Positions 9,001 through 64,000 of a stretch of 64,000 bases of DNA are shown in pieces. The notes under the pieces were generated by a model. The model saw only the letters and a program-made list of their open reading frames with translations. It searched no databases and was not told the DNA's origin. Origin of the DNA: a virus (lineage: Duplodnaviria > Caudoviricetes); IMG/VR virus record IMGVR_UViG_3300013947_000026, positions 38,883 to 102,882 of that record. One strand, 5' to 3'. The position numbers and the translations under genes were made by a program. How positions within the stretch are numbered: position 1 is the stretch's first letter; each line of letters begins with the position of its first letter.

Positions 9001-9456
9001 AGAGATTTTTATTAGGTAGATAAATCTGATGGTGTTTTCGCTGTAGCAAATATAACTAGTTCTTTAAATGCGGTAGAAGGTGGAACCAATATGGCCGTAC
9101 AAGTTGGTATAAAACAAGGAAAGCCTGTACATGTGTATGATCTTAATACTGAAAGCTGGTATAAATATAATCAATCTACCGGCAAATTTGAAGTTGAGGA
9201 CACTCCTATGCTAACAAAATCATTTGCTGGAGTTGGAACTAGAAATATTCAAAATTATAAAGTTAATAAGAATGGCTAGTGGGTTGATAGAGAAGGTTAT
9301 GTAGGATATGATAAAGCTCTAAAAGCTGCAAATGCAATAAAAGCTGTATATTAGAAGACGTTCTCTAAAGACGATTATAAAGTAAAGAATGAGCAAGAAA
9401 TAAAAGACGACCTTAAAGAACTCGGAAAGAGAAGATAGGACGACTGTAATAAATAA
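1..9456 (+). CDS. Giant virion RNA polymerase polyprotein (5'-truncated; exon 1 <1..3437, exon 2 4333..9456; TAG=Gln), with fused C-terminal RecD/Dda-like helicase and SLOG-like domains
   Basis: The ORF-track fragments share one frame per exon, and the stretches I translated are broken only by TAG; the frame closes at TAA 9454-9456. Motifs: INVADGSAFIT, IGYRIPTQAQSS, and catalytic GSD|FDIDK after intron removal, typical of crAss-like RNAPs. Confidence 0.9.
3438..4332 (+). mobile_element. Group I self-splicing intron in the RNAP catalytic motif
   Basis: Exon 1 ends in U (ggttcggat) and pairs with gttcaaacc (P1, U.G at the splice site). caatatcaa pairs with 3' exon ttgatattg (P10). Core elements: P aattgctgggaactc, Q aatcagcagcca, R gttcaacgacta, S aagatatagtctga; terminal G4332. 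Splicing restores DFDID. Confidence 0.93.
3600..4301 (+). CDS. Intron-encoded LAGLIDADG homing endonuclease (TAG read-through, about 233 aa)
   Basis: MKTKITKESRNLLIALLLGDG...IAIWYMDDG; 5 in-frame TAG, ends TGA 4299-4301. Missed by the ORF track. Confidence 0.88.
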
Positions 9457-9461
9457 TTATT

Positions 9462-12400: not shown

Positions 12401-14945
12401 TCTTAGATTTCTTATAGATAATAGATTCTTCTTTAAGAATACAAAGAAAGGTCCATAGCCACTTGATTGCTTTTATGAAATAACTCCAAAGGCTAACACT
12501 TTTATATACAATGGTTAGACTTATAATTCTATTATATTAAAACCTACTGGAAGATTTTCTAAAAGAAGTAATGCGTCGCAAAGTAAAATATATGATGATA
12601 GATATAATTTTCAAAGAAAAGATCCAGGATATTAGCTTACAGATAAATATAAAGACAAATATTTTGATTAGGAGATAAACGGAAATTCAGACATTCGTGC
12701 TTTGTATGATATGCTTGTAAATACTATGAAAGAAATGTATAGCAAGATTCCAGCTATTAAGTCAGGATATAATAACTCACTTCCTTAGATAGAAGGCACT
12801 ACAGCTATGCTTCTTTCAAGAGTGTTTAGAGGCCCAAATTCAGCAAAAGACACATTTGGATATCTTGGTAAATCTATGGTTAGCATAATGCCTAGTGATA
12901 CAGATCTTGAGGTAAAGGGATCAAAACCAAGGATAACTCCTAGCGGTGAAGACGAAAGCACGGTTCCTATTAGGTTTGTCAAGCGATTAGATCATCCAGA
13001 ATACATAAGTTCGTCTATATGTAGCAATGTTATACAATTTGTAGACATGGCTAAGAACTATGAGGGTAAAATGGAACTTTTACCAGAGATACTTGCTATA
13101 CAAAAATAGCTTAATCCAGAATATAGAGAAGATAAATATAAAAGTTCTAGATCAGGAAATGCTTATAAGCATTTTAGAAAGATGGATAAATATAGCAGTC
13201 AACGAAGCGAAGAAGCAATAAATACACTTCTTGAAACTTAGTTCTACGGCAAAAATGTTGTATCTGGTCTTACTAAAAATAACGAGAAAGGAGATGCTGC
13301 TAGAGTTTTGATATCAAGAGCAAAGAGGTACGGGTCTATACATATGCTTGGTCTTAATACCGCTTCTATGGCTGTTGGTGCAATGGATGCAAATATGTAG
13401 ATATTTAAAGATTCTCTTGTAGGCAAATATCTTACAATGAAAGACTTTAGGTGGGCTATTGGTAAACTCCTTAATCCTAGAACTATATTAAACAATTTTA
13501 GAGGATTAGGTAAAGCGTAGGCTACAACTAAAGAGGGAGCTTTGATGTAGATGAACTAGATAAGTAAGAACAACTCTGAAATATTTGAAGGTTTACACAA
13601 AGGGTGGTTCAGAAGATTTTGTCTTAAATATTTAATGATGGGAGGTTATACGTTAGGTGACTATATGAATAATTCTATTGTTATGTTATCTTTCTATCAT
13701 CATACAAGGCTTTTTGAAGATACATCATATGCTGGTGTTAAACCTGGATTTTATACTCGTAATTAGCTTATAAAAGCGTTTACTGATGCCGGATATACAA
13801 AGAAGTAGGCCAAATCAGTATATTCTGGTTTGCACATAACTTTGTATGATGCATACGATTGGCATCCAGGAGATTATCTTCCAACTGTTAATTAGGCATT
13901 CTAGAAATATTTGAATAGCAAGATAGCAAAGAATGTAAGAAATAAAATTATTTAGAGATCTGCTTACTATAACGGAGTTATGCCTGCTACAGAAGTGTCT
14001 AAAGCTAGATAGAATTTGTATACAGCTATGATGTTTATGATGCGTAATTTCATTGTTGGCAACGTATACGAAAGAATGTAGAATGCAAATGATTACATTG
14101 TAAAGGAGCTGGATGAAAACGGAGTCCCTGTAAAAAATCCAAAAACAACAGAAGAGGCTCAAAGTTATGGTTATTACAACTATGAAACTGGAGAAATAGA
14201 ACGAGGTCATTATACATCTATAGCAAATTTGTCTAGAAGATATATAACTAATTGGATATATGGCATACGTTCATTTTTATCTCATGATCCAGCAAAAAAG
14301 CAAGAATATTCTGATAAAAGAGAAAAGTTAAAAGGTATAACATAGCTTGAAATAGAAGGAGTCAAAGCTGTTTCTGCAGATGTAGCTATTTGTGCGGCAG
14401 TAACGTTAGCTTCTGTATTCTTAAAAATGAAAGCTGATGACGATAAATCTTGGTGGATACAATATTTATATTTAATATCACTTCGTCTTGCAGAAGCTAG
14501 AGGAACAAATCTTGATCCTACTACAGTTATGGATTTCATCGGATCTATTACAACATTACAGTCTGTATGGAATGATTTTGGTACAGGTTTTACATACATA
14601 CTTGATGCTATGGGGTTAACTGGACATAATCCAACAGATACAGTAAAGTCTGGCGCGTATAAAGGGTCTAGCAGATGGTTCCGTGATGTTATGAAAATGG
14701 TTCCATTTAGTAATCTATATGAAGATATGAATTACAATACACTGCGAGCTAAACAAAACTACTATAGAAATAAATATTGGTATCTGCATCTATTTGGAAA
14801 TGATTCTACAGGTAATTCGTCTGGAGAACCAGTTATGCCAGATGATTATAATAATACAGATAATTCATTAGGAAGTGGATAGTTTGATCCGAACCAAGAT
14901 TTTGGTGGAGGCTCATTTGATGCTGGAGGAAGTTTTAATCCATAA
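9462..14945 (+). CDS. Large (about 1827 aa) virion/ejection-type protein downstream of RNAP (TAG=Gln)
   Basis: ATG 9462; track fragments 10974, 11439, 12807 and 14427 all lie in this frame; ends TAA 14943-14945. Function inferred from position next to the RNAP gene. Confidence 0.75.
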
Positions 14946-34762: not shown

Positions 34763-35260
34763 TTATTTGTTATTGAACGTTCTTTCGATGTATTTTATGA
34801 ATCCATCCAAATATTCGTCGACGTCTGCATTTCTGCGAATATAATTTTTGCAATTATCATCAAAGACGCCAGAGATTGAATAAATACACTCTATGTATTT
34901 ATAATGCTTTTGAAACCATATAACCCATGTTTGTACCCATTTCCAGAAGTTTAATTCTCCTTTTTCTAGGTTAGGATTAATACTTTCCATATTTATAGAA
35001 TTAGCAAAATTAAATTCTTGCTTTCCTTTATGTATACCAAGAGCTTTTCTTACAGACGAATTCTTTTCATCTTTTGTAGTATATATAGCTACATTCTCTT
35101 TATATACTCTTTCTATCCACCTCTCTTTAACTCTGTACTTTATTCTATTTTCTGGTTCACATTGTAAATTTACAATACGTCCAAATTCTGTACACCATTT
35201 AAGAGCGATGTTGACGACATAAGGACACCTGTCCCGGATCATCGCTTTATATCCCTTCAT
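34763..35260 (-). CDS. Hypothetical protein
   Basis: 165-aa ORF. Confidence 0.65.
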   Translation of the reverse strand: MKGYKAMIRDRCPYVVNIALKWCTEFGRIVNLQCEPENRIKYRVKERWIERVYKENVAIYTTKDEKNSSVRKALGIHKGKQEFNFANSINMESINPNLEKGELNFWKWVQTWVIWFQKHYKYIECIYSISGVFDDNCKNYIRRNADVDEYLDGFIKYIERTFNNK

Positions 35261-35339
35261 AATTAAATTGGAGAAGTGTAGAGACTCGAACTCTACTACC
35301 CCAAACCATAAGGCGACGGGCCCTTTCTTCTCTCTCCAC

Positions 35340-35545
35340 TTTGGTAGGAAACACCTAGACTTTACTTACGCTACGTGAGTATAATCTACAATGTTGTTAA
35401 CATTGCCTTTTATATTTAGTATAGTGTTTATATGTATTTATCTCCTCCGCCTGTCAAAACCAAAACACGCCCTATTTAATATTTTGTGGACGTGAGCGGA
35501 ATTGAACCGCTGTCCAAGCAGATTATTTCATACACACTTTACTTT
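35340..35545 (-). ncRNA. ssrA: Circularly permuted (two-piece) tmRNA-like gene
   Basis: Acceptor piece ...GGAC-AGCGG-UUCAAUU-CCGCU-CACGUCC-A (ends 35487) precedes coding piece GGGCGUG-UUUUGGUUUUGAC... (starts 35472). G3.U70 pair; tag ORF 35407-35366 GNVNNIVDYTHVA*. Outer boundaries approximate. Confidence 0.8.
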
Positions 35546-36013
35546 CTTTGTAAATGCTCTAATGATCAGTCAGAACATTCGATTTAAACCACTTTATTTG
35601 CGTTCTAAGGCACTTTTAAATAGCTTGTGGTTAATTACTCCATTTACTTTTTATGATGTCTTAGAACGCATTAAATCATGGTTTTAAAATACACAGTGAC
35701 CCTCATGATACTATGATACTTAGAGGACTGCGTTCAGCATTTTTGATATTACATGCAGGGTTCACAATATTGAAGTTATCTTAAAGTAATTCTCCCCGAT
35801 ACGAAGATACGCACATGTCATATTTTTTGATCTACTGCCCCTAATTATACGTGTAGGGTCACGTCATTCTTTCCCTATCATGATACTAAGATACTTAGAT
35901 AGGAATGTCAATTCATTCTTTTACTCTTTAAGTGTCCTTGCCACTCACTAGTGCATCGCTGTAATCTCTTGGAGCTTGGGCGTGATACGATGATACTTGC
36001 CCTGGAAAGAATA

Positions 36014-37808: not shown

Positions 37809-37878
37809 TTTGATAATATTTTAGAGATTTGACAAATGTTAATTATCCGGGATTTATAGATACACGGAATCATCTTTG

Positions 37879-37951
37879 TGATACATATGAGACTCGAACT
37901 CATGACCCATAGATTAAAAATCTATTGCTCTGCCAACTGAGCTAATGTATC
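37879..37951 (-). tRNA. tRNA-Lys(UUU)
   Basis: GATACAT-TA-GCTCAGTTGGCAGAGC-A-ATAGA TT TTT AA TCTAT-GGGTC-ATGAG TTCGAGT CTCAT-ATGTATC-A. Confidence 0.93.
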
Positions 37952-45458: not shown

Positions 45459-45914
45459 TCATCTTGTGCCATTCTACTCAGCATGGGCTACGTATTTTGA
45501 ACACTCTTCCTCTATAATTTCACCATCGTCATTCTTTGTTATATGTGTGTATTTTTTCTTTGATCTATTGTATTTAAACGCCCTAAAAGCTTTATCCCTC
45601 TCACGCTTTTCGTCGTATCGGTGTATATATTTCATCATCTATGTAGCATTTACTGACCCAGAAACACCAAGATTACATAGATTTTTAATGAAACTCTATG
45701 CTCCGTCATCACCAAATTTATGTTTAAGCATACTATATTCTTTGAGGCTTTTCTAGAACCACTAATTGCTTATATCGTAAGTTGGTTCTTGGTCTACTAT
45801 GTATGCTATATTCATAGGGATACCATGTATAAAGAAATACTTGCACTGCTCAGTACATGGTTTATCCTAATATTGTAGAGACAAAAAGTCTGCATAATAT
45901 AGTATAGAACTCAT
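45459..45914 (-). CDS. TAG-recoded hypothetical protein (151 aa), missed by the ORF track
   Basis: ATG 45914, six in-frame TAG, ends TGA 45459-45461; fills the gap between neighbours. Confidence 0.7.
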
Positions 45915-45925
45915 CTCTGCCTAAT

Positions 45926-46321
45926 TCATGCTTTCTTATATGTTTTGTACACACACTCCGTTATATACCCCTGCAAATAAGCGTAAGCTTCACAACTATC
46001 ATCACTATACTTAACGCCGCAAGATTTAAGTATATCCATTGTAGCATGTAAAGACTCATGAGATATAGTATTTATATTATCAAATTCATCTTTTACTTTG
46101 TTAATTACTATTACTATACAGTCTTCTTCATTGTCTTTACATGTAGCCCCAGTAACTGTATATGCTGTAAAATCATCATACTTACCATCTAGTATAGATG
46201 TATGGTCATCACTCCATTCAAACCTTTTGTCTACTATACTCTTATCAGGATTAAGTATTACATATACGTTAAAACAGTATACTGTACTATACTTGTCTAT
46301 TATACATTTCTTTTTATCCAT
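45926..46321 (-). CDS. Hypothetical protein with HExxH motif
   Basis: TISHESLHA...EAYAYL. Confidence 0.65.
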   Translation of the reverse strand: MDKKKCIIDKYSTVYCFNVYVILNPDKSIVDKRFEWSDDHTSILDGKYDDFTAYTVTGATCKDNEEDCIVIVINKVKDEFDNINTISHESLHATMDILKSCGVKYSDDSCEAYAYLQGYITECVYKTYKKA

Positions 46322-48389: not shown

Positions 48390-48465
48390 GAGTCTATTAG
48401 TCAAACGGTAAAGACAACCCGATATAAAGGGAATAGTTAGTGGGTTCGACTCCCACATAGACTCC
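48390..48465 (+). ncRNA. tRNA-like RNA with an aberrant anticodon arm
   Basis: 8-bp acceptor GAGTCTAT/ATAGACTC, D arm, and T arm GTGGG TTCGACT CCCAC; anticodon arm does not fit a 5-bp stem with 7-nt loop. Confidence 0.55.
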
Positions 48466-48470
48466 AATAT

Positions 48471-48543
48471 CGCGGGATGATGAAATGGTATCATGCGCGG
48501 CTCATAACCCCGATTTGTTAGTTCGACTCTAACTCCCGCAACT
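48471..48543 (+). tRNA. tRNA-Met(CAU), initiator-like (C1:A72)
   Basis: CGCGGGA...CT CAT AA...GTTAG TTCGACT CTAAC TCCCGCA. Confidence 0.85.
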
Positions 48544-48547
48544 ATAT

Positions 48548-48620
48548 TGCCCTATGGTGTACCGCCTGTGCACAACTGTCTCTAAAACAGTAGGTCTCCG
48601 ATGGACACGGAGTGGGGCTA
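48548..48620 (+). tRNA. Amber suppressor tRNA(CUA), probably Gln-charged, with atypical D/T loops
   Basis: TGCCCTA-TG-GTGT ACCGCCTGT GCAC-A-ACTGT CT CTA AA ACAGT-AGGT-CTCCG ATGGACA CGGAG-TGGGGCT-A. Confidence 0.85.
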
Positions 48621-48649: not shown

Positions 48650-49207
48650 ATGGAGTTAAAATTTAAGAGACTTGAGGACAATGCCGTCCTCCCTATTCGT
48701 AGCACAAAAGGTGCTGCAGGAATTGATTTGACTTGCATTAAGATTGAAACAGCACTTAATGAAGCAAATCAGCTAATGTTGGTTTACCATACAGGATTGG
48801 CAGTAGAGATTCCTGCCGGATATGTTGGTTTACTTATACCACGCTCTAGTATTTGGAAAAAATCATTATGGCTTACTGACAATGTTGGCGTTATAGACTC
48901 TGATTATAGAGGCGAGATTGTGGCTTATATGAAGGCTACTACAGATGTTGTGCCTGCAATATATAAGCAAGGTGAACGTTTTTGTCAGTTGGTTATTGTT
49001 CCGGTACCAGAGTATACAATTTCTGAAGCAGCAGAGCTTTCTGACACAGAAAGAGGAGAGAACGGTTTTGGTTCTACAGGTACTGGAAATGTAAACGAAG
49101 TTAGCGCAGCTACGGGAACTGAGGCACAGGCTAGCGAACAGCAGCAGTCCGCACCAGAGCAAGCGGCGGCACAAGATAGTGCTGAGGTAAGTGGAGAGCA
49201 GGCCTGA
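48650..49207 (+). CDS. dut: dUTPase (trimeric)
   Basis: AAGIDL, PRSS, GVIDSDYRGEI, RGENGFGSTG; start placed at MELKFKRL. Confidence 0.95.
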   Translation: MELKFKRLEDNAVLPIRSTKGAAGIDLTCIKIETALNEANQLMLVYHTGLAVEIPAGYVGLLIPRSSIWKKSLWLTDNVGVIDSDYRGEIVAYMKATTDVVPAIYKQGERFCQLVIVPVPEYTISEAAELSDTERGENGFGSTGTGNVNEVSAATGTEAQASEQQQSAPEQAAAQDSAEVSGEQA

Positions 49208-49286: not shown

Positions 49287-50723
49287 ATGAATTTTAAGAA
49301 ACAACCATTAAAAGGTGTAGAGATACATGGCGCTCCACAAGTTGGTACACGTACTGTTAATATCTTAATGGGCGAACATGCTAACGAATTCGTGCGTGGT
49401 GATATTATGGATGCAAATGCCGTATTGCAAGCATTTGATGAGCTTAAGGGTAATGTTGACGATAAACACGACACGCTCGAAGAGCTTGTAGATGAAATCC
49501 ATACAAATGCTACTGTAATTAACGGAGCTATTAACTACACACATAAAGTCGAAGCTGAATCAAAAGCTAGAGACGAATAGGAAGCTAAAGATAGAACTGA
49601 CGCAGACAATGCTCTTGGTCAAAGAATAGACGACGAAGCTACCGCTCGTAAGGCTGCAGATGCAGCAGAGCTATCTAGAGCAACACAGGAAGAAGCTAAG
49701 TTAGACGCAGCTATTAAGGCTGAGGCTAATACTAGAAAGCTTAATGACGATACTATTACTAGTGCGTTAAACGCAGAGATTACTCGTGCTAAGGCTGCAG
49801 AAAAAGATAATAGTAATGCCATTACTGCAGAAGCTTCTACAAGAAAGTCTGAAGATGATGCCATTAAAAACCTCCTGCAAAATGAGACAACTAGAGCTAC
49901 TAATGCAGAGAATACTCTTCAAAGTAATATTGACACAGAGGCTGCTACTAGAAAGAAGAATGATGACACTCTTACAACTAATCTTAATAATGAGATTACA
50001 AGAGCCAAGGCGGCAGAAAAGGCAAATAAAGATAGAATTGATGTTATTGATGGAGATTCTAGTACTGAAGGTTCTTACAGAAAAGCTATAAAAGATCTTA
50101 TCAATGGTGCACCAGAGGCGTACGATACGTTGAAAGAGATTGCTGACAAACTTGCAGAGAATGATGACCTTCATCAAGCTATTGAAGAGGCTATCGCAAC
50201 AAAGGCTTCAAAAACAGAATTAAAGACTGAATCTGATAGAGCTAAGCAAGCTGAGGCTGATAACGAAGCTGCTATTACAGCAGAAAAGAATAGAGCCACA
50301 TAGGCTGAAAGTGATATTACGTCTAACCTTAATAAGGAGATTGATAGAGCCAAGAAAGCAGAATAGGCTAATACTACAGCTATTACAAATGAAGTAACTA
50401 GAGCTACAGCTAAAGAAACAGAACTGTCTAATGCTATTACATCTGAAGCTGCTACTGCTAGAGCTGCCGAGAAAGCTAATTCTGATAAGATTGCACAAGA
50501 GACTACTGATAGAAAAAATGCCGATACAACTTTAAATAATGCTATCAACAAGGAAATATCAGATAGAACTACGGCGATTTCAAATGCTACAACAACATTG
50601 AACAATAGCATTAGCACTGTTAGTAACAATCTTGCAAATCTCACAACAACTGTAAACAACATTAGTAGTACAGTATCTAATATTACGGCAATCAGTACTG
50701 ATTATATTAACGGTTTAAGCTAA
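49287..50723 (+). CDS. Coiled-coil repeat, tail-fibre-like protein (478 aa, TAG=Gln)
   Basis: Repeated EITRAKAAE / EASTRK units; frame closes at TAA 50721-50723. Confidence 0.75.
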
Positions 50724-50729
50724 TAAGGT

Positions 50730-53534
50730 ATGGAAGAAAATATTAAAGTACAAGCAGAAGATACATAGAAGGTTGAGTATCTTGATAAGAACGGCCTTGA
50801 TTTGTTGTGGACTAAGGTTAAGAAAAATGCACAAGATCAAGTTGAAGTAGAATATAATCGTGCTAAAGGTAAGGAAGATGAAATAACTGCTAGTATAAAA
50901 GAAGAGGTCAATAACCGTGCAGAAGCTATTAATAATCTCAAATACATCCCATATACACAGAAGGTTAATTAGACGTATACAATTAAAGATGGATATTTAG
51001 AATTCGATGGTGGCTACGGAATCGGTGTAACTAATAGTTCGTTAACTAATACTAATTCATATATTGATAGTTAGTATATTAAAATCTCTAGTAATAATAC
51101 AAAGATTAACATTAACGCTTATGATAAAAAAATAGCAATAAGCAATGGAGCTAACATTGTGTCAATATCACCTACAGGGATTTCTAAATCACTCGGTAGT
51201 CATACAGAGGCGTTCTCGACTAATGGAGGAGTAATAGATACTGCCACATTTGCATTAAAGAGTGAGTTAACTGATTATGCTAAGAAAACAGAGCTGCCTG
51301 AAGCTGTAAAAGTAGACGATGTCAGAGTTAATGAAGAATCTGTTGTAGTTAATAAAATCGCCAACATTGATTTGACAAAGTATGCTACACAACAATATGT
51401 TACAGATGCTATAAATGCAGATCACAACACAACTAATATTAATCTGTATAGGAACTTTACGAATTTTGATCTTGATTAGGATGGTAATGGTTTGACTAAT
51501 CTGTATGTAACAACAGATAACACAGGTTTATCTGTTGCAGCTATTGGTTCAAAAAATTCAACCCAAACTTCTTTAGGCTAGATACAAATAGGAGCTGATA
51601 AGTCAAATCTTGATCTTGGATGTTATATAAAGTTTTCTAAAGGAACAGATATCGGTTTAACATTAACTAAAAGAGGAATTATTAATCCCAGTTATTATGG
51701 AGATGAAGAAGGATTTTATCACGTTTATACAGCTAATGGTGGCGAAATCAACCTGAAAGAACATTTTGTTGAAAACAATATTGAATCACGAGAAACCAAC
51801 GCAACATATTATTCGCTTTAGTGCCATAAAGATGATAATGATAATTGGAAAGAATTTGATCTCAAAATTAAAAATACTGGTATTTATATTGGCGATGGAA
51901 CAACAACAACGAAAATTAATCCAAATGAAATAACTACAATTAATGCAATTAATGCAGGAGATGTCTCCATTAATGGGAACGGCGACTATATAAGTATTGT
52001 CAAATCGGGAAAAAATATAGGTAGCCCAGAACATGCGTTTACAACAGATGGTGGAACCGTAGACCTTTCAGAGTACGCCAAGAAGAGCGAAATCACTGCA
52101 AGTGGTAATGTTGATGATGTGCAAATTAATGGCACAAGTGTCGTAGAAGACAAGGTAGCTAAGATTAAACTTGCTACTAAAGATGACTTCGGAGTTGTAA
52201 AAGTTGGAAATGGTCTTGATGTTAAAGATGGTGTTGTTGGCGTTGATACAGATGCTTTTGCCGATTTATTGTCATATGGTATTGAATGGGATACAACTGT
52301 AGCCAACCCAGCTTGTACGAGAATTGGTAATCCGTTACTTCATAAATCATTACCAATTTAGTCTAAATACAAAGGCTGTCTTGTTAAGAATGGTAAAGTG
52401 AACTATTATCTTAATCCTAATGATTGGTCAAAAAAAGCTGATGGAACAGCATCTGTGCTTGATGGTACCGATGGAGATGTAATGGTTCGCATTCCTAGAT
52501 TCTACGGCAAATCTGGTTCTAATGGAGATAAGAGATGGGTTAGAATATCTTTGTCACAAATTGACTCAACATGGGTTGAAATACCAGAGATGTTTGTGAG
52601 CGCATATAGAATTACAACATATAGTGATTCTGGTACTACAAAGGTAGCATCTGTTGTAAATACGTCTACAGGATATCGTGGTGGATCAAATAGAAGCGCT
52701 AATGATCAATATTTGGATACAGATAAATTTAGAACAGACCTTGGAAAACCTAGAACTTTATTATCTAGAGCAGCAATGCGTACTAATGCTAAAAACTCTG
52801 GTCAAGAATTATTGTGCTATGAATTCTATAAGTGGATATTCTATTGGGCTTATGTAATAGAGTATGCTAATTTTAACTCACAACTAGAATTTAATTCTAA
52901 TCTTACTTCAGATGGCTATCATCAAGGAGGATTAGGACCTGGTTTGACTTCATGGGATTACAGTATGTGGAATAAGTATAATGAACATAACCCATTAACC
53001 CCTTGTGGGTATACTAATGAATTAGGAAACTTTAGTGGTGTAAAATCATTAGTTATTCCAGAAACTAAGATAGATGATACTACAACGATTAGTACGAAAA
53101 CTCTTAGCGTAAATAGGTGGAGAGGATTTGAAAACCCATTTGGAGATATATGGACCAATCTTGATGGTGTAACTATAATGCATAATGCAGCTGATGCTTT
53201 ACTAGAAGTATACACCACAGCTGATAGTTCAAAATTTAGTGACGATATTGACATGGGTGGGGATGTTCATTTTGAAATTCCTAAAGATGGATATATTAAA
53301 GAATTCAATTTAGGTGAAACTGGAGAAATTATACCTTCAGATGTTGGGGCATCAGAATCTACATATAAATGTGATTATCATTATTGCGATGCTTCCTATT
53401 TAGGAAATAGAACACTCTTGGTGGGTGGTAGCGCTAATAATGGTGGTCAGGCCGGCCTTGGCTCTTTCCACTCTTATAGTGGTGTTGGTGGTGCCTATTC
53501 CAATGTTGGCTTTAGATCCGTGATAAGGGCATAA
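50730..53534 (+). CDS. DGR target protein: tail fibre / receptor-binding protein with C-terminal CLec-like variable domain (934 aa, TAG=Gln)
   Basis: One frame broken only by TAG; GFENPFGDIW...LLVGGSA...SNVGFR C-terminus carries the VR. Confidence 0.88.
53411..53512 (+). repeat. DGR variable repeat (VR)
   Basis: About 100-nt copy of TR with 20 mismatches by manual alignment, all at TR adenines. Confidence 0.95.
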
Positions 53535-53572
53535 TTTTGAATTTGGTTTTTATTCTTTATATTGGAAATTAC

Positions 53573-53674
53573 AAAACTCTTAGTAGGTAGTAACGCTAAT
53601 AATGGTAGTAAAGCCAGCCTTAGCTATTTCAACTCTAATAATGGTGTTAGTAATGCCAATTCCAATGTTAGCTA
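53573..53674 (+). repeat. DGR template repeat (TR)
   Basis: AAT/AAC/AGT-rich non-coding copy of VR between the target gene and RT. Confidence 0.95.
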
Positions 53675-53789
53675 TTTATTTTAATTTTTGTTAAGAATAA
53701 CAACCTTACCTCTTGGTAAAAAATAACGTTTATTAACCACACCGTGTTGGTAGGATCAATCCGAAGACTCGGTATTAATATAAAAAGAT

Positions 53790-55028
53790 TTGAAAAGAAT
53801 AGGGAATCTTAAAGAAAAGATTTGCACATTAAATAATATTTATATAGCAGATGAAAATGCTAGATTAAATAAAACAAAGAAATATGGTGTATAGAAACAT
53901 GATAAAAATAGGGATGAAGAAAACGAAAAGTTATTACAAGATTTTATAAATCTAACTTACAGAACATCTTAGTATAGCACATTTAAAATATACGAACCAA
54001 AAGAACGTATAATTTATCGTCTACCATATTACCCTGATAGAATTGCGCATCATGCAATAATGAATGTCATGGAAGGTATTTGGAGAAAAATATTTATTAA
54101 AAATACATACTCTTCAATACGAGGTAGAGGCATACATAAATGTGCCAAAGATTTATATAATGATTTGCAGAGCAATATTGAAGAAACACAATATTGCTTA
54201 AAGCTTGACGTTCGTAAATTCTATCCATCTATAGATCATGATATTTTATATAAAATAATACAAAAGAAAATAAAAGACAAGTGGTTATTAAAGTTATTAA
54301 AAGAAATAATATATTCAGCAGACGGTGTTCCAATAGGTAATTATTTGTCGCAATTTTTTGCGAATTTATATTTAACATATTTTGATCATTGGATTAAAGA
54401 AAATGTTAGATGTAAATATTACTACAGATACGCTGATGATATAGTGATTCTTGATAGTAATAAAGATCATCTTAGAAATATATTGATAGCTATAAAATTT
54501 TATTTCCACAATATTCTAAAATTAGAAATAAAATCAAACTATCAAGTATTCCCAGTAGAAGATCGTGGTATCGATTTTGTTGGATATATATTTAGACATA
54601 GATACAGATTACTTAGGAAATCCATAAAAATAAAAATATCTAAACTTATTCGTCGATATATGAATAAGCGAATTTCTAAGTGTGCATTCGAGTCGAGAAT
54701 GACATCATATAGAGGGTGGCTAAAATTTTGCGACTCTAAACATTTTTCGTACATAGTAGAACATTTATCAAAATATAGACTATCTACATGGAATGGTGAT
54801 TTAACATAGATAACAAATCTAAATAATAAAATGCTCTACGTAATTGAGATCTTAGTTAGGCAAAAATATTTTGAGATACATGCTTTAAGAAATAACAAGT
54901 AGTTGATTATTAGGTCTAAAAACAAGAGGTTGTATAAAACATTAAACAAATTAAGTTTACCATATATTTTTAAATATGAACACAATAAGTTCCAATATAA
55001 AACCAAGCGCCATAAAACAACTCGGTGA
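53790..55028 (+). CDS. DGR reverse transcriptase (TTG start, 4 TAG=Gln, about 412 aa)
   Basis: MKRIGNL, EPKERIIY...PDRIAHHA, LKLDVRKFYPSI, GVPIGNYLSQ, RYADD, GIDFVGY. Confidence 0.93.
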
Positions 55029-55329
55029 TAACACATATTATTACAATTATAATATTACGAGCGAACAGAGAACAAATGAAAATGGCGAACAAGAAACAAT
55101 CTATAATTTTATCTAGGTGCATCTTACAGGTATTCCAGACTATAAAGATTGTATTAGAAATATTATTAGAGAATATGTTTCACAAACAGAAGAATTTGAC
55201 CTTATCAACAGCTATAATAAAGTATAGATTACTGGTGAGAAAAATTCTGAAGATATAAAAAAGTATACAGATTATATTAATCTGCTTGAAGAAATTAAAA
55301 CGAATGTTAAGAAAGATTTTAACATTTAA
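54976..55329 (+). CDS. Small hypothetical protein (117 aa, TAG=Gln)
   Basis: ATG 54976, 2 TAG, TAA 55327-55329; overlaps the RT 3' end. Confidence 0.65.
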
Positions 55330-55332
55330 TCT

Positions 55333-56187
55333 ATGATAACGGTAATTATAACAGCTTATAATGTAAGCAAAACTATATACAAAGCAATATAGAGTTGCAT
55401 AAATCAGACTTATAAGGATTTAGAGATATTAATTATTAACGACTGTTCTACAGATAATACATTATAGATTGTATAGTCTGTAAAAGATCCTAGAATAAGA
55501 GTTGTAAATAATTCTGAAAATTTAGGTGCAGGTATGTCTAGGAGAATAGGTACTAAAGAAGCGAAAGGTGAATACACTGTATTCCTAGATGGAGATGATT
55601 ATTTAGATAAAGACTACATATAGACATTATACGATTTGGCTATAAAAAATAATGCCGATGTAGTATCTAGTGGTGTTAGAATAATAACCGACGATTCTAA
55701 AAATGAAATAAAATCTAAACAATTTGGAGAATATAATAGCTTAGACTTTATATTAAAAAACGAAGCTGTTACAAGTTTTGTAAGCAATTGGCTTAATAAT
55801 AAAATTATACGTAGAACTATATGGAATAAAGTCGATTATAGTGATAGAAGATATGTAGAAGATACACAAACAGCATATTATGTTTTATTTTATTCAGGTA
55901 AAGTTATAGATACTCCTTATGTTGGATATAACTATGTATAGAATCATGATAGCTTAATACATACAGCAGATGAAGTAAAAAATAAAATATATCAAGCTTT
56001 ATGTGCAAAAGATATATCCACATTTGTTGAATAGCATAAAAAAGAAGATTATAAACTTTCTGCAAAAGCTTTCTTGTTTAGAATACATGAAATGAAATCA
56101 ATATAGCTTACAAATGAAGTGATATGTAAATATAAAGATGAGTTAGCTGAATTGTTCGCGTTTTTGCTTCATATTATGTAGTCTTAA
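55333..56187 (+). CDS. Glycosyltransferase family 2 (TAG=Gln)
   Basis: ITVIITAYN, INQTYKDLEILIINDCSTD, GEYTVFLDGDD, RYVED. Confidence 0.9.
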
Positions 56188-56221
56188 TTTTTGTTTTTGT
56201 TATAATTATTGAATTTTATTT

Positions 56222-56272
56222 AGCTAGGTCTTAATGAAAGCATGACGGGGTTCGTTGCCCCGCCTAGCTCAA
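56222..56272 (+). ncRNA. tRNA-like minihelix (acceptor stem plus T arm)
   Basis: AGCTAGG...CGGGG TTCGTTG CCCCG CCTAGCT. Confidence 0.45.
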
Positions 56273-56522
56273 CAGGCTCTACCACGCCTCTTTCTAAATG
56301 CGTACCAGGATAGAGCTTTTATCCCTCCTAGATGAAATATACTAGGACTCGCGTAGTAATACGCTAATATTAAACTTGACTAGGATTAATCCGATCTTAG
56401 TCTTATATTATTTTACTTAAACTTGTAGTAAAAAGCTTATTTAATCTTTAGCTGTGGCGCTTTAGGCGTGGTCTTCAATGACGCCACAGTGCTATAATTA
56501 ATAATAATTTAAACAAATTAAC

Positions 56523-59303
56523 ATGACTGAATTACTATCATAGAATGATTAGGTTGTCGAGAAGAAGCCAAATCCAATCGAAGAACTTAATACAACAATG
56601 GCTTAGTATTATTCCGTATTGCATTCAAAGATTTATAATCATGCAAACAACACAGATGTACATGTTACATCAGATGATAAGAAGAACTGGAATAGTAAAG
56701 CCAATTAGTCTGATTTAGAATCTGTTAAAGAATATGCTGATAGTTTAAAGTAGTCTTTAGATAAAGTTAAGCCAGATATAATTAAGGAAGTCGAGACTAT
56801 GATAGATAATAGTAAAGACATTAATTTATCTGACTATGCTACAAAGGTTTATGTAGATGCATAGATATAGGCGCTTAATATAAGTGATGATGCTGCTACA
56901 AAAACATGGGTAACAAATAACTTTGTAAATTCTTCAAACTATCAAAGATTTGATTCTACAAAGTATTACACGAAAGACGAGATTGATAACAAAATTGCTG
57001 GAGCAAATGTAGATAATTACAAGATAACAGAATTTAGCTTAGCTAACGATTATCTTAATCTTACTCAAAATAACGGTATATCGACATAGGTAAAACTATC
57101 GGATGTATCTGGGGGAGCTATAACTAGCGATAACCTTGATAGAAAGCTATAGGATTATTTAAAAACATCAGCAGTTGGTAGTATAACATTCACAAGAGGT
57201 GGTAGAACTGTTACAACGTGGAATCCAGCTTCAGAAAATGCCACAGTAGAACTTTCTGGTGGAAGCGGAGCAGACTCACAAAGCGGTGGATATTATAAGC
57301 CTTATTTTAAAAACTATCCAGACGACAATAATTTACCTACATCTCAATTACCAGTAATTGGGCAAGATCCTGTAAATGCTGGATGGAATGCTGTAAATGT
57401 TAACCCAGAACAAGGATATTTTACTTGGGAGATTTGGGTATACATCAAGACAGGTGGTGGCTTTGGAGACATTATAGGTCCAGTTTGTATTTCCGGAAAA
57501 GATGGCGATAACGGATCTGATGTTACAGGAAAAGAATACATTTATCAATTAAATGACAACCAGCCTACAAAACCAACTACAAAACCAGCATGGGGTGATG
57601 TTCCATCAGGATGGACAGATAACCCTACAGGTATAGATTCTACACATCGTACAGAATGGATGATGTATAGAACACAAGACAATAATGGAGTTATAAGTGA
57701 TTGGCTTCCTGCGAAAGGCCCTGTAATTTGGGCGCATTGGGGAAAAGATGGTACTGATGGCGATGGCGTACAATATATATTCTGTGCATTAAAACCTGGA
57801 GAAACCACATCTGTATTTACTGGAACGAATGACCCTACGACATGGACTAATGATTCTGGTTTTCAAAACGGGAAAGCTGGAGAGTACATTAAATCTGGAT
57901 CAAGATGGACTGATAATCCAATAGATATAAAAACAGCTTCTGGATACGGATAGGGGTCAAGTCAATATGTAAGTATAAGGAGATATAGGGGATCTTCTGG
58001 AAGCGCTGAAGATAACGATGGGAAGTGGAGCTCTTATAGCCAACCTAGCTTGTGGACATATATGGCGAAAGATGGAAACAGTTCATCTCAAACACTAAAA
58101 GGTTCTCCATTAAGAAATAGAGGATCTTGGGCTTCAAATGTTTAGTATTTTGATGGCACAACGCAATCAGATGGTGGATTGTTCTATCAGGATTTTGTAT
58201 CTTATACACATACAGTTGTAGCAGATGGATAGTCTAAAAATGTAACAGATTTTTTTGTATGTAAAAAACAATGTTCTAACGTAGTTCCTACAAATACAGA
58301 TTACTGGGATAAGCTTAGCGATATGGGCCCTATATATACAGAAGTATTAGTGGCAATGAAGGCGTACATACAAGAACTTACAGCAGAAGAAGTTATCATT
58401 ACAGACAATGAAAATATTGTAGCTGGTATGACTTCTGGTAAATCAGATAAGGTATCATCGCAAGGCAACGTTAGAATATGGGCTGGAACAAATGATAAAG
58501 ATGCTAGCAATATAGCTGAGGCTCCATTTACTGTTACAGATAAAGGTGTTTTAACATGTAGAGGAGACGATGGTAATATTGTATTAAAAGACGGTACAAT
58601 ATACTTTATTGTTGGTGGTGTAGAGTATAAGCTTGGCATAACTAATGGAAAACCAGATTGGATAAATAGTGCTGGCGCTGATAATGTTGAGCAATGGTAT
58701 AGTAAAACAGAAACTAGTACAAATATATCATTTAAAGCAGTTGACTCATTTAGCGTTAAAGATAATATATATTATACTAATGGCACAATGGCAAATAAGG
58801 TAACAGGCACATATTATAGAAAAATATCTAGAAGTACATGTTTACAATACATTGGTTCGCAGATATTCCTAGCATATAATGACGCAATTGGTGTAGAGGT
58901 TTACAAAAAAGCTACATTTAATAATGGTGTTAAAACTGACAATGGAATAGTATCTATAAGCGGTAAATGTTCTGTTAGTTCAATACCTACAGTAACTAAT
59001 CCAGGAAAGATTAATGTAAATACTAGCAATAAACAATGGTGTTCGATATAGTAGGTAGATAAGTCTAGCGTTACAAATTTGTTCTATATAAGTTCTTCTA
59101 TTAGTGCTGCTTAGGCACAATATTACAATGTTGATAATAATAATATAACGTACGATGATAGCACGAGTGATGGTATATATATACTAAAACCAGCATCTTC
59201 CGAATCTGTAAACTAGACGATGAAAATATCAACATGGATAGATAAAATAGATGTAAGTGACACTTCTAAATTCTGTCCAGAAATAACAACAATATCGTTA
59301 TAA
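56523..59303 (+). CDS. Tail-fibre-like structural protein (926 aa, TAG=Gln)
   Basis: One frame; GKDGxxG and WTDNP repeats; NVRIWAG...APFTVTDKG. Confidence 0.75.
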
Positions 59304-59812
59304 TGTTTGACATAGTATAGAATAAAATACAATTAAGTACAGAAGATCTAGCCATTCCTCCATTTAAGAATTATTATAATAATGCCAAAAATAAACAAGA
59401 TGCTCTTAAGAAGATAGAATTTGTTGTATGGCGTTATAAATGGAATAGTCCCTATGAAGCTTATCCAGAAAAAGAGAGAACATGGAGAGTGGCTAAAGAT
59501 GTGCTTAATGATGAGAATTATATACCTGATGACACTGTAAAAGAATTAGCAAAGAGGTTTCAGGAGTTTCAAGAGACTCCTGCTACCAGATTGCTTAAAT
59601 CTTCTAAGAGCGCAGCAGAGGGAATAATGAATACAATGGATATGTACGCTGAAGAAGAACTTGATATAGATACTGCTAAGAAGCTTTCCGCAATACTAAA
59701 AGATGTTAGCGGTATTATTAAGTCTTTGGATCTTGCTTCAAAACAGGCGAAGGCAGAACAAGCTGAAGCTGGTAGAGTTAAAGGTGGCGGCGTTATTGGT
59801 ATGTACGAATAA
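59303..59812 (+). CDS. Hypothetical protein upstream of TerL (possible small terminase)
   Basis: ATG overlaps the previous TAA; one TAG; function from position only. Confidence 0.55.
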
Positions 59813-59817
59813 CTATT

Positions 59818-62800
59818 ATGGTAGATTTTAATTAGAAACTCCACAATACTGACAAGTTTAGATAGGCTGCTATCTTCTTTGAGGAACATGGATGTTATAC
59901 CCTAGCTCCCATGGGTACTACTGATTATAACAAATATTGGGAGCAAGAAACAGATAGATGCCTTAATGGTTACACTGCTCCAGACGGAGAAGGCATAACT
60001 GGCTTTAATTATTTCTATCTCAATTATAGTCCTATTATGGCTCTTAAAGAAACAGAATATACTGATAGAGAAGGTAATCTTAGAAAACGAAGAGAGCGTA
60101 TTCTTAAGTTCCCTAGTTTCTGGGATTATGACTACTATTATTTCTGCGCTATAGAACAAGCAGAAGTAGAAGGAAAGCACATGGCTGTTCTCAAGTGCAG
60201 ATAGCGCGGGTATAGTTTTAAGGGAGCATCAATGCTTGTGAGAAATTACATGCTTATTCCAGGTTCAAAGAACTTCGCTGTGGCTTCGGAATAGAAGTTT
60301 CTAATTGGTGACGGCTTGCTTACTAAAGCTTGGCAAATAATGGACTTTCTTGATAAACACACAGCGTGGGCTAAATAGAGGCTTGTATCAACCCGTATGG
60401 AAAGAGTATCTGGCTATAAGATAACTGATGAATTTGGTAAGCAAACAGAGCAAGGATATCTTTCTAGTATAGTTGGCATTACACTTAAGAATGACCCAGA
60501 ACGCATTCGTGGTACTCGTGGAAAGCTTGTACTATGGGAGGAAGGCGGTAAATTCCCTAGTCTTCTTGATGCGTGGCGTATTGAGTAGCCATCTGTAGAA
60601 ACCGACGATGGTGTAGCATTCGGAACAATGATAGCTTTTGGCTGTGTTTGTAAAGGTACAAAAGTTTGGACATCTACTGGTGATTGTATTAATATAGAAG
60701 ATATCAAAAAAGAACAAGGAATACTTGGTTGGGATACATATCAAGCCGTGCAATAGCATATTGATAACATTAATCCACCAGCGTAGAAGCCTTGTGTTAG
60801 AATAACGACAAACACTGGCAGAATATTAGAGTGCAGTACGGATCATCCATTACTTTGGTCTACTCCGGGAAAAACAAAAAGAGTTCCAGGAAAAAGAAAA
60901 GAAAATGAAGTTATGAAAGCCTGGTTATTCCATGATGCTGGAAAATGCAAGATAGGAGAATAGGTTGGAGTAATAGATAGTATTCCTTTCTTTGGTACAA
61001 AGAAAATGTGGGAACCTAGAGTTGTTGGATGGCTTATAGGCGATGGTAGCTATGGTTTTGATAAAACGCCAAGATTATCAAACTGTGATTTTGAGATTAA
61101 TGATTATATTGAAACGCATTTTGATACTGCTCCAGACAAACCTCAAAGAGAAACTAAAGATGGTAAGATATATAAAGAAACCAGGATAAAAGGCATTTGT
61201 AAAAATCTTAGAGAACTAGGAATATATGGTTAGACAAAGGCGGCAAAAAGATTACCGATAAACATTCATTAGTATGACGCCGAATCTTTATCTGAATTAA
61301 TTGGCGGGCTATTTGATACTGATGGGTATATTAGTGTAGATAAAACAGGAAGACCAAGAATAACTCTTACTCAATGTTAGGAAGAAATTCTTAGAGAAGT
61401 AGAGTCTGTATTACTTCATTTTGGAATTCACTGCAACATTAAATTTATAAAAACAAAATTTAGGGAGTATGAATGCGATGGAAAGATTATTAAAGATAGA
61501 GCTGGGCATTGGAGGTTAACAATTGCCGACATTAATAGTGTTGGCAACTTTGCAAAATACATAACATGTTTTGTTGGTTACAAACAGTCAGCTTTGGATT
61601 TAATGAATTTATATACCCAAGATTGGTTAGCTAAATATCATAAGTATGTTCTTGGTGTGCATGCTGAAAGAATCGTTAAAATTGAAGACATCGGCATGCA
61701 GGATATTTATAATCTTACAGCAAAAGAATAGCATAATTATATATGTAATGGCATTGTAACGCACAACACAGGTGGTACAGAAGGAGCGTCTTTCGATGGC
61801 TTGAAGGAATTATTTTATAAGCCAAAAGCTTATAATGTACTTAGCTTTCCAAATAAGTGGGACGATGGTAGAGAGAATACAGAATGCGGATTCTTTGTGC
61901 CAGCTTACTCAAACCTAGAATCATTTGGAGATGATGGTAAGCAGCTATATATGGATAGCGACGGTAATAGCTACAAAGAGAAGGCTATCGAGAACCTTCT
62001 TGAACAACGTAATAAGGTTAAAGAAGGAGGTGCAAGCCAGTAGTCTATAGATCGATTTATATCAGAGCGTCCTATTAGGCCAGCAGAAGCAGTATTGGAG
62101 CTTGGTAAAAACATATTCCCTAGAAAGCTTTTAATGGATCAATTGACTCGCATACGAACGAACAAAAAGCTTCAAAGTATGAAACACATAGTTGATCTAG
62201 AATGGGACGGAAATGGTCAAGTGAAAGCTATAGAAAAGCCTAGCGGAGATATAACTAATTACCCTTTAAAGAAAGGTGATAAGCCGCATGGTTCTGTTGT
62301 AATTTGGGAGTATCCTGTTAAAGACCCTCCTTTGGGTTTATATATCGGAGGATGCGATCCATACGATCACGATGATTCGTTTACAAACTCATTAGGTTCT
62401 ACGTTTATATTTAAACGAGTGCGAGCAGGAGAAGCTTGGAATGACGTAATAGTAGCAGAGTATTCTGGACGCCCTGATACGGCAGAAGAATACTATGAGA
62501 ATGTACGCAAATTACTTACTTTCTATAATGCTAGATTACTATTTGAGAATGAAAGAAAAGGCATCTACCCTTACTTTACGAATAAACACTGCGATTACCT
62601 CTTGGCTGATTAGCCGGATAAGATTATATCTGAGGTATTTAAAGATAGTAAGGTGTAGAGAAGAAAAGGATGCCATATGACTAAGTAGATCAGAGCGTAT
62701 GGCGAAGGGTTAATATTAGAGTGGCTACTGGATGAATATGAACCAGGTCACCCTAATGTAGAAAGAGTATACAGCGAAGCCTTAATAGAAGAACTTATAG

Positions 62801-63006
62801 CCAATGATGGAGTAAAGAACGTTGACCGCTTAATTGCTCTATGTATGGTTATGATATATAGAGAAGAATTATATTAGCTTAAGGTTTAGTCTGCTAAAGA
62901 ACAAAATAAATAGGTTGAACTCTTCGAGATGCCGTTATTTAGTAAACAATGGTTTGAGGAAGATAACAGCACAAGTGGAGACGGTATACCGATATTCACA
63001 TTTTAA
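59818..63006 (+). CDS. terL: Terminase large subunit, intein-containing (TAG=Gln)
   Basis: LKCR*RGYS, WEEGGK, AFG|TGG, GGCDPYD, LFENE, NVDRLIAL. Confidence 0.92.
60643..61767 (+). mobile_element. Intein (375 aa) with LAGLIDADG endonuclease
   Basis: Begins CVCKGTKV; block B CSTDHPLL; GWLIGDG and GGLFDTDG; ends GIVTHN followed by Thr. Confidence 0.93.
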
Positions 63007-63009
63007 TAC

Positions 63010-64000
63010 ATGGAAGATAATTTATACAATTCAGCTTTCCCTAGACAAAAGTTGCCACTTTCATAGAAAGGAAAGAAATGGCAATAGGATTGCGTTAACT
63101 ATATTATAGGTGAAGGTAACGTAACGTCTGGAGGAAACAGCACATCATACTACGGAGAGCTGTAGACCTATTATAATTTATATAACAGCATCTTCGACGA
63201 GAAGGATTTTAAATCAATTACAAACCCATTCAAGGTCGAGGATGGTTTTCCTGCTACTCCTCACGACTTTAATATTATTAGGCCTAAAGTAGATTTGCTT
63301 ATAGGCGAGGAGACAAAGAGACCTCTTAACTTTAGAGTTATTAGAACTTCTCAGGAGGCTACATCTGAAATGCAGGAGAAAGAAAAGTAGATGATTCTAC
63401 AATATATTGAAGCAGCTATCACAGCTAGAATGAGCCCAGAAGAGGCTCAGTAGTTCCAAGAATAGTTATAGTCTGGTGAGGTTATGCCACCAGAGGCCAT
63501 AGCTAAGTACATGGATAAGGATTACAAAGATATTATTGAAAATACAGCGTATCATACTCTTACATACCTTAGAGAGAAACTTGATCTTGATAATGAGTTC
63601 ATCAAGGGCTGGAAAGACGGATTGATCTCAGGTAGAGAAATTTACTATGTTGGCGTACTTAATGCAGAGCCATATGTCGAAAGAGTTAATCCTATATATT
63701 TCTCTTACGACAAGAGCCCAGACTTGGAGTTTATTGAGGATGGTTCATGGTGCTGCAGAAAGATGAGAATGCCAATCACTGAAGTATATGATAGATACTT
63801 TGATAAGCTTGAGGAGAAAGACCTTGACAAACTTGAAGAGTTAATTGGTTCTACTCCTGGTAGAAACCTTGGAGACAGAAGCCCTGTTGACATGGGTATT
63901 CAATTACGAATATATGATAATCCTATATTTGAAGGCGCTGGTAAGTCTTTGGTAAACGTTTGGCATTGTTGTTGGAAGTCTTTTAAGAAGATCTATTACG
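63010..64000 (+). CDS. Portal protein (3'-truncated, TAG=Gln)
   Basis: FPRQKLP...NIIRPKVDLLIGEETKRP; follows TerL as in crAss-like phages. Confidence 0.85.

Follow-up and report, generated by a model that had tools for sequence, protein, structure and literature searches.

The stretch of DNA analysed here, referred to as the window, comprises 64,000 nucleotides and corresponds to bases 38883-102882 of a virus record of 102,882 bp that is rated complete by CheckV. The record represents a gut crAss-like phage that is Burzaovirus-like; among named phages, cr124_1 and cr7_1 (Burzaovirus, Suoliviridae, Oafivirinae) come closest to it, with an identity of about 78%. Ahead of a dUTPase gene, the window contains a tight cluster of three tRNA genes, separated by spacers of 6 nt and all devoid of an encoded CCA, the third of which has the anticodon CUA and is called here the suppressor (table 1). 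The middle gene is a tRNA-Met, and a similar one accompanies the suppressor in most of the swapped, intermediate and L060 loci described below; cr124_1 and cr7_1 have in its place a conserved non-coding insert of 140-310 nt (L002:2340-2480). The first gene is tRNA-like. Since its body is conserved among relatives while its 8-nt loop varies (GAUAUAAA, GAUACAAA, GACACAAA), the equivalent of U33 included, it is probably not a decoder and probably serves as a processing handle.

Table 1. Positions of the tRNA cluster, the parts of the suppressor and the downstream genes in the window
Feature	Position	Strand	Remarks
tRNA-like gene	48391..48464	+	normal D and T loops; 3-bp anticodon stem, 8-nt loop; Rfam 38.8 bits; fold
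tRNA-Met(CAU), initiator-like	48471..48541	+	C1.A72; ARAGORN; Rfam 52.2 bits; 6 nt upstream of the suppressor
tRNA-Gln(CUA), predicted amber suppressor	48548..48620	+	73 nt including discriminator A73; no encoded CCA
Acceptor stem, 5' strand	48548..48554	+	partner strand 48613-48619; first pair U1.U72
D arm	48557..48573	+	9-nt loop ACCGCCUGU on a stem of 4 bp; a stem of 6 bp closing the 5-nt loop CGCCU is more likely
D-loop positions	G18 = 48564, C19 = 48565	+	
Anticodon loop CUCUAAA	48580..48586	+	anticodon CUA 48582-48584; invariant across suppressor relatives
T arm CUCCG / AUGGACA / CGGAG	48596..48612	+	nearest canonical relative: UUCGACC
T-loop positions	A54 = 48601, U55 = 48602, G56 = 48603, G57 = 48604, A58 = 48605, A60 = 48607	+	
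dUTPase gene	48651..49207	+	0 TAG; conserved right-hand neighbour of the suppressor slot; annotated in relatives
First rightward ORF needing TAG read-through	49287..50723	+	3 in-frame TAG; TAG-rich block continues to 64000

The genes around the cluster differ sharply in their content of in-frame TAG codons. In the rightward direction, the ORFs at 3-14945 and 49287-64000 stay open only with TAG read-through. In-frame TAGs number 184 across 12 rightward ORFs of the window and about 436 in the whole genome, counted over ORFs of at least 200 aa, whereas the leftward block at 14970-44744 has essentially none. Rightward genes leading up to the tRNA cluster are also free of TAG, and the change comes after the dUTPase gene, in agreement with the initial annotation of this DNA, which had placed the suppressor just upstream of the TAG-containing rightward genes. 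An exception among the TAG-free leftward genes is the ORF at 45459-45929 (-), which has seven in-frame TAGs; hence, recoding follows the gene and not the strand. The leftward block also encodes a permuted (two-piece) tmRNA (35205-35576, -; Rfam RF04321, 74 bits) and a canonical tRNA-Lys(UUU) (37878-37951, -). Among the rightward genes, a LAGLIDADG homing endonuclease gene (3600-4301, +; PHROG 11023) itself has five TAGs, and a reverse transcriptase gene with four TAGs (53790-55028, +; PHROG 1423, E 5e-105) adjoins a tail protein gene. The large terminase ORF (59818-63006, +) encodes 1062 aa, of which only residues 644-1034 match terminases and residues 273-541 have a helicase-like match, which may represent an insertion, a fusion or an intein-like element.

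Cloverleaf and detection of the suppressor

The sequence at 48548-48620 reads as the well-formed cloverleaf with CUA anticodon and U.U first pair that had been described for it. The acceptor strands are UGCCCUA and UGGGGCU, the D stem is GUGU/GCAC, the anticodon stem ACUGU/ACAGU has 5 bp and closes a 7-nt loop with U33 and a purine at 37, and the variable loop is AGGU (4 nt). Free energy alone gives the same cloverleaf, at -24.5 kcal/mol, a value that is ordinary for the composition (z -1.3, with 20 of 200 shuffles equally stable), so that the case for a real tRNA rests on homology and covariation. In an alignment of 21 tRNA sequences, 97.8% of the cells are paired and double changes occur at 15 of the 24 pairs, a level of covariation that is matched by none of 500 shuffles and by no slid control. 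For the suppressor clade, MFE folding and RNAalifold alike predict a D stem of 6 bp with a 5-nt loop, backed by the compensatory change from C15:G20b to G15:C20b in one group of relatives, the L222 type; the D arm of the suppressor probably has this form. A D stem of this length may cost the tRNA its usual contacts 8:14 and 15:48 (the bases at the usual 15:48 positions are C and U), which would make the geometry of the corner uncertain.

Standard tools overlook this gene, as the initial annotation had anticipated in stating that scanners may score it poorly. ARAGORN does not report it at default settings, and has to be run in mitochondrial mode or with its threshold lowered to recover it; the Rfam tRNA model (RF00005) does not match it at its gathering threshold of 29 bits, nor at E<=10 on a slice of 311 nt. 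Its relatives fare little better: the intermediate type scores 27.3 bits and the L222 type 27.2 bits with Rfam, the swapped and L060 types are unscored, and the swapped, L060 and L222 types are all missed by default ARAGORN. The covariance model that we built from the suppressor family, R1, gives the suppressor 88.4 bits as its sole match in the genome, and neither ARAGORN, Rfam nor R1 finds another CUA tRNA in this CheckV-complete genome. Two 'CUA' calls made by ARAGORN at low threshold are poor structures inside coding regions and were discarded as junk. GenBank phage records gave no blastn match to the suppressor tRNA.

The flipped C19:G56 elbow pair accounts for the failure of standard tRNA finders. 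Among 342 distinct tRNAs called by ARAGORN in the fetched DNA, a sample biased towards tool-visible tRNAs, position 56 is C in 336, U in three, G in one and A in one, and U54 is present in 338. As a whole clade of suppressors with four elbow states lies below the Rfam threshold or is unscored, annotation pipelines under-call both such tRNAs and the code change that they support. It has been proposed that recoded crAss-like phages without a detectable suppressor may carry one that is too divergent (Yutin et al. 2021, PMC7886860); the present tRNA is a concrete case of this proposal and explains why some recoded phages seem to be suppressor-less.

The elbow in the suppressor and its relatives

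In place of the canonical elbow bases G18 G19 and U54 U55 C56, the suppressor has G18 C19 and A54 U55 G56. The initial annotation had reported both the D-loop GG and the T-loop UUC as absent; the T loop is indeed AUGGACA, and the description of the D loop can be refined, in that G18 is kept and only the second G is replaced. Pattern scans of IMG/VR and of metagenomes recovered a family of relatives, among which the nearest canonical form is found in eight contigs (for example L015), with D loop ACCGGCUGU and T loop UUCGACC. Compared with this form, the suppressor has undergone four replacements at the corner, G19 to C, C56 to G, U54 to A and C60 to A, while G18, U55, G57, A58 and G53:C61 are retained. 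The proposal that G19:C56 is swapped to C:G is therefore upheld: the nearest homologue differs at both positions, and 19:56 is of Watson-Crick type in all 20 distinct Gln-type tRNAs (12 G:C, four A:U, four C:G, no mismatch). The D/T covariation check that had been suggested for homologues thus finds the two positions always paired. In the same 20 tRNAs, 54:58 is U:A in 14 and purine-purine in six. These comparisons support the view that the elbow pair has been inverted to Watson-Crick C19:G56, and that the elbow would have been rewired rather than broken. The C:G state arose once, so the swap counts as a single evolutionary event, and the wider covariation rests on separate A:U events.

Other derived states occur in the same clade. 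One combines A18 G19 with the T loop GUCGGCA (L060), another G18 A19 with GUUGGCA, thereby forming A19:U56 (L222-L228); cr131_1 and cr272_1 have A19:U56 in their annotated suppressors as well, as does a phage tRNA-Gln(UUG). The swapped form itself is present in 15 other contigs, and all its carriers are TAG-recoded. Three variants have both loops unchanged: L061, in which G2:C71 has become C2:G71, L075, in which C4:G69 has become U4:A69 together with U1.G72, and L076, which has only U1.G72. An IMG/VR scan for the CUA loop followed by the T loop AUGGACA found only L027 besides the window genome, the other matches not folding as tRNAs. The tRNA is identical in 73 of 73 positions across diverged flanks, which may reflect recent spread driven by an endonuclease rather than long purifying selection alone; we rate the two causes as equally good.

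How would such a corner be accommodated? What the ribosome, RNase P and other partners recognise at the elbow is chiefly a flat 19:56 pair on which they can stack (PMC4810234), and for this reason an inverted pair is plausibly tolerated. The purine-purine combination has a precedent in eukaryotic initiator tRNA, where a Hoogsteen A54-A58 pair replaces U54:A58 (PMC7912444). The substrate consensus of TruB is 53-GUUYRANYC-61 (PMC7912444); the T arm of the suppressor departs from it at 54, 56 and 60 and has no U54 to methylate, from which altered modification is predicted. These tRNAs thus present natural covariation at the 'universal' G19:C56 pair, together with replacement of U54:A58, in molecules that must work on bacterial ribosomes, and such elbow variants would be useful for understanding what the elbow requires and for designing orthogonal tRNAs. 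We found no description of a natural C19:G56 tRNA in the literature; the single match to 'C19-G56' was a passing mention in a paper on ribosome structure.

Unusual elbows were also seen in tRNAs of other kinds. A large gut phage tRNA set includes a tRNA-Ser(UGA) with G56 and the D loop AAUGUCUA (L037:11932-12022, +), and a second set has odd elbows at L050:1151-1227, 2039-2112, 2323-2397 and 3316-3389 (all -); across these large sets, tRNA-Met, tRNA-Phe and tRNA-Ala have A54 with U58, that is 54:58 reversed, and tRNA-Gly has A19:U56. About 440 nt upstream of the swapped suppressor of L062 lies a degenerate Gln-like tRNA that ARAGORN does not call (L062:1880-1949, +), in which a weak anticodon stem carries the loop GUUUAAA, with the ochre-type anticodon UUA.

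The HNH cassette and the origin of the altered elbow

In seven contigs with the swapped allele (L027, L065, L066, L068, L070, L072 and L077), an HNH endonuclease gene lies between the tRNA and the dUTPase gene. The order is swapped tRNA, the conserved motif ACGTAGGTTAGAG, an HNH ORF of 135 aa, a suppressor remnant and dUTPase (in L068, the elements between tRNA and dUTPase lie at 7320-7810). The HNH protein belongs to PHROG 2255 (E 2e-32), the Pfam scan giving only a weak zinc-ribbon match, and in two of the contigs, L066 and L070, a run of A7 is the site of a frameshift in the ORF. The remnant, which lies 473-475 nt after the swapped tRNA, is what is left of a canonical suppressor from its variable loop through the T arm to the 3' strand of the acceptor; hence, where two copies coexist, it is the canonical suppressor that is truncated and the swapped one that is intact. 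Three types of remnant 3' end are present among the seven contigs, corresponding to at least three different resident alleles. As the remnants differ among contigs, the cassette formed by swapped tRNA and HNH has replaced the 5' two-thirds of different resident suppressors, as expected for homing; the presence of HNH with a displaced canonical 3' remnant in all seven identifies the swapped allele as a mobile cassette that is spreading.

HNH genes with 45-58% identity to these come after each of the seven L222-type tRNAs and after that of L060, but after only one of eight intermediate loci (L038) and one of 21 other loci (L008). At L008:9016-9087 (-) and in L042, a CUA tRNA that cannot form a normal 5-bp T stem is followed immediately by an HNH homologue. 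In cr131_1, a GIY-YIG endonuclease comes directly after the A19:U56 suppressor. The window genome has neither an HNH homologue nor a suppressor remnant; the 3' junctions differ among the window genome, L073 and L075/L076, which suggests separate losses of the endonuclease with retention of the tRNA. A related situation is known from phage T4, where the site of the homing endonuclease SegB, encoded in a tRNA gene cluster, includes the conserved T-arm motif (PMC2330249).

We consider it probable that the tRNA is the phage's own glutamine-inserting amber suppressor, with an elbow that is rewired but paired, and that the rewiring is most likely compensatory in an allele spread by HNH. An alternative, which we regard as quite possible, is that endonuclease drive raised the frequency of a slightly defective allele with one elbow mutation, whose pair was later repaired by a change at a second site; the rewiring would then bring no benefit in itself. 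The linkage of the seven swapped loci with HNH and the associated remnants are consistent with such hitch-hiking, as is the drift of 19:56 to A:U without any endonuclease in cr272_1, tRNA-Gln(UUG) of L037, tRNA-Gly of L050 and a tRNA-Arg of Saccharibacteria; moreover, the orientation of the pair may matter little if the corner is read mainly by stacking (PMC4810234). Three separate derived alleles, however, have changed 54, 58 or 60 to give purine-54 and A60, an outcome that looks more patterned than random drift. A more elaborate scenario gives the rewiring a purpose: HNH would cut the canonical suppressor gene of competitors, and the tRNA travelling with it would have become uncuttable yet functional, by changing the most conserved DNA motifs (the D-loop GG and the T-loop GTTCGAATC) with compensation. 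This would amount to a cleave-and-rescue gene drive acting on a tRNA, of which the compensated elbow (C19:G56, purine 54, A60) would be the footprint and the window copy a rescue allele that has outlived its endonuclease; HNH would destroy the suppressor gene that TAG-recoded crAss-like phages need, while supplying a functional replacement proof against cleavage. The same linkage argues for it, HNH being found after the seven swapped, the seven L222-type and the L060 tRNAs and rarely elsewhere, together with the resident alleles left as remnants right after HNH, the GIY-YIG gene of cr131_1 and the recognition of a conserved T-arm motif by SegB (PMC2330249). Yet a canonical T-arm remnant survives beside HNH, and therefore the T arm alone cannot be the target, which leads us to regard this scenario as rather unlikely. 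Differences in the anticodon stem and variable loop could also confer immunity without any change of the elbow, an intermediate allele with a normal T loop can carry HNH as well (L038), and the window has no HNH.

The remaining explanations do not involve an endonuclease. The initial annotation had suggested that the altered corner hides the suppressor from host enzymes that read the T loop or elbow, or from tRNA-directed defence. The departures from the TruB consensus at 54, 56 and 60 and the missing U54 (PMC7912444) agree with this, as do the normal loops of the other tRNAs of the same phage, but no known defence reads the sequence of the elbow, and canonical suppressors suffice for sister phages whose hosts are similar; we judge evasion improbable. 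Even less credit is given to the idea that the corner contact has been lost, in a floppy tRNA of mitochondrial or Sec type with a 6-bp D stem and no 19:56 pairing: the predicted 6-bp stem with its 5-nt loop and one compensatory change would fit, and so would C and U as the usual 15:48 partners, but 19:56 stays complementary in the 20 relatives through G:C, A:U and C:G, and G18, U55, G57 and G53:C61 are all kept. That the gene is a decaying pseudogene, with TAG read by other means, is very unlikely. Although scanners reject the suppressor, the complete genome, with its 436 sense TAGs, offers no other candidate, its stems are kept by compensatory changes, and in contigs with two copies the truncated one is canonical. 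Compensatory change in an allele spread by the endonuclease is the reading that we retain. The link with HNH and the truncated resident tRNA make it testable whether selfish nucleases drive change in tRNA sequence.

Meaning of TAG, proposed function and comparison with known systems

The meaning of TAG can be read from homologous proteins. In the helicase domain of a 1708-aa protein, all 40 of 40 distant homologues have Q opposite one TAG, and TAG positions show a three-fold enrichment of Q. In an orthologue with 83% protein identity (L220), the codon opposite the 38 TAGs of the window is TAG in 20 cases and CAA/CAG in 11, and TAGs of L220 face CAA/CAG of the window 19 times. The same codon comparison in the fast-evolving tail genes beside the tRNA was uninformative, and blastn of the helicase region against GenBank phages returned nothing useful. 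Judging from the codon exchanges, TAG is glutamine in this phage, as metaproteomics has established for two crAss-like phages (PMC9523058). Terminase, tail and helicase proteins all need TAG suppression in this genome. Function of the tRNA as a suppressor is strongly inferred from sequence, since this complete genome carries about 436 sense TAGs and no other CUA tRNA, and since the variants keep the loops and change their stems in a compensatory way.

The scaffold of the tRNA matches chromosomal tRNA-Gln(UUG) of Bacteroidales, with the same D arm, U1 (in a U1:A72 pair there) and A73, and we infer that it descends from a tRNA-Gln of this type. The suppressor has U1 with a weak 1:72 pair, G2:C71, G10, U35 and A37. 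Its relatives all have U1 but vary at position 72 between A, G and U, which fits a tRNA-Gln whose first pair need not form. The determinants of E. coli GlnRS are G73, G3:C70, G36 and U38 (PMC9976931); these elements are absent from the suppressor, and Bacteroidales tRNA-Gln likewise has A73 and a variable 3:70 pair. The phage genome gave no match to a GlnRS/GluRS core, a GlnRS anticodon-binding domain or a class-I release factor, and a control run found a GlnRS-type domain in Bacteroides thetaiotaomicron. Given this domain in Bacteroides, the GluRS/GatCAB route is less likely than direct charging, and host GlnRS would be the simplest route. ARAGORN labels the gene 'Pyl', a label based on the anticodon only. 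tRNA-Pyl has an anticodon stem of 6 bp, a variable loop of 3 nt and one base between the acceptor and D stems. This identity was rejected, for the suppressor has a 5-bp anticodon stem, a 4-nt variable loop and 2 nt between acceptor and D stem, and TAG exchanges with CAA/CAG.

In the mechanism that we propose, the suppressor, whose cluster opens the rightward operon and immediately precedes the recoded genes, would allow late genes full of TAG to be translated. It would be released by host RNase P and 3' processing, receive its CCA from the host CCA enzyme, as the gene encodes none, and be charged by host GlnRS, with support expected from U1 with an unpaired 1:72, G2:C71, G10, U35, A37 and A73, features that Bacteroidales tRNA-Gln has too; the charged tRNA would then compete with RF1 at UAG. 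At the corner, U54:A58 would be replaced by A54.A58 with A60, G18, U55 and G57 being kept. The rewiring would have arisen by compensatory evolution in an allele spreading with the HNH homing endonuclease, and in the window genome the endonuclease would since have gone, the tRNA staying as the sole suppressor.

The closest known counterparts are the annotated tRNA-Gln(CUA) of cr124_1 (NC_055899), cr7_1 (NC_055895) and cr272_1 (NC_055903), which occupy the same slot immediately upstream of the dUTPase gene. They share with the suppressor U1, the 5' strand of the acceptor, the D stem, the anticodon loop, A73 and the role in TAG-recoded late genes. They have, however, a D-loop GG (or G18 A19) and the T loop UUCGAAU (or UUUGAAU), and are called by ARAGORN, whereas the tRNA of the window, with C19:G56, A54, A60, U1.U72 and a D loop of 9 nt, goes unseen by tools at their default settings. 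In tRNA-Sec, tRNA-Pyl and mitochondrial tRNAs, compact D loops go together with departure from GG and T-Psi-C. The suppressor resembles them in its predicted long D stem and small D loop and in its non-GG, non-T-Psi-C elbow, and tRNA-Pyl also in its CUA anticodon. A60 is found in the T loop of eukaryotic initiator tRNA-Met, which thus has A54 and A60 as the suppressor does; but it is an initiator from another domain of life and keeps G19:C56, so that this is resemblance and not relatedness. The T4 SegB system is alike in that the endonuclease has a free-standing gene of its own next to tRNA genes of the phage and drives the inheritance of these neighbours, but SegB is of GIY-YIG and not HNH type, and no report there concerns a linked tRNA with an altered elbow or a truncated resident tRNA. 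Finally, amber suppressors selected in the laboratory by the Steinberg group, with randomised D and T loops, reportedly work in bacteria with non-standard elbows. Those suppressors came from artificial libraries in E. coli, whereas the tRNA of the window represents a natural and widespread allele.
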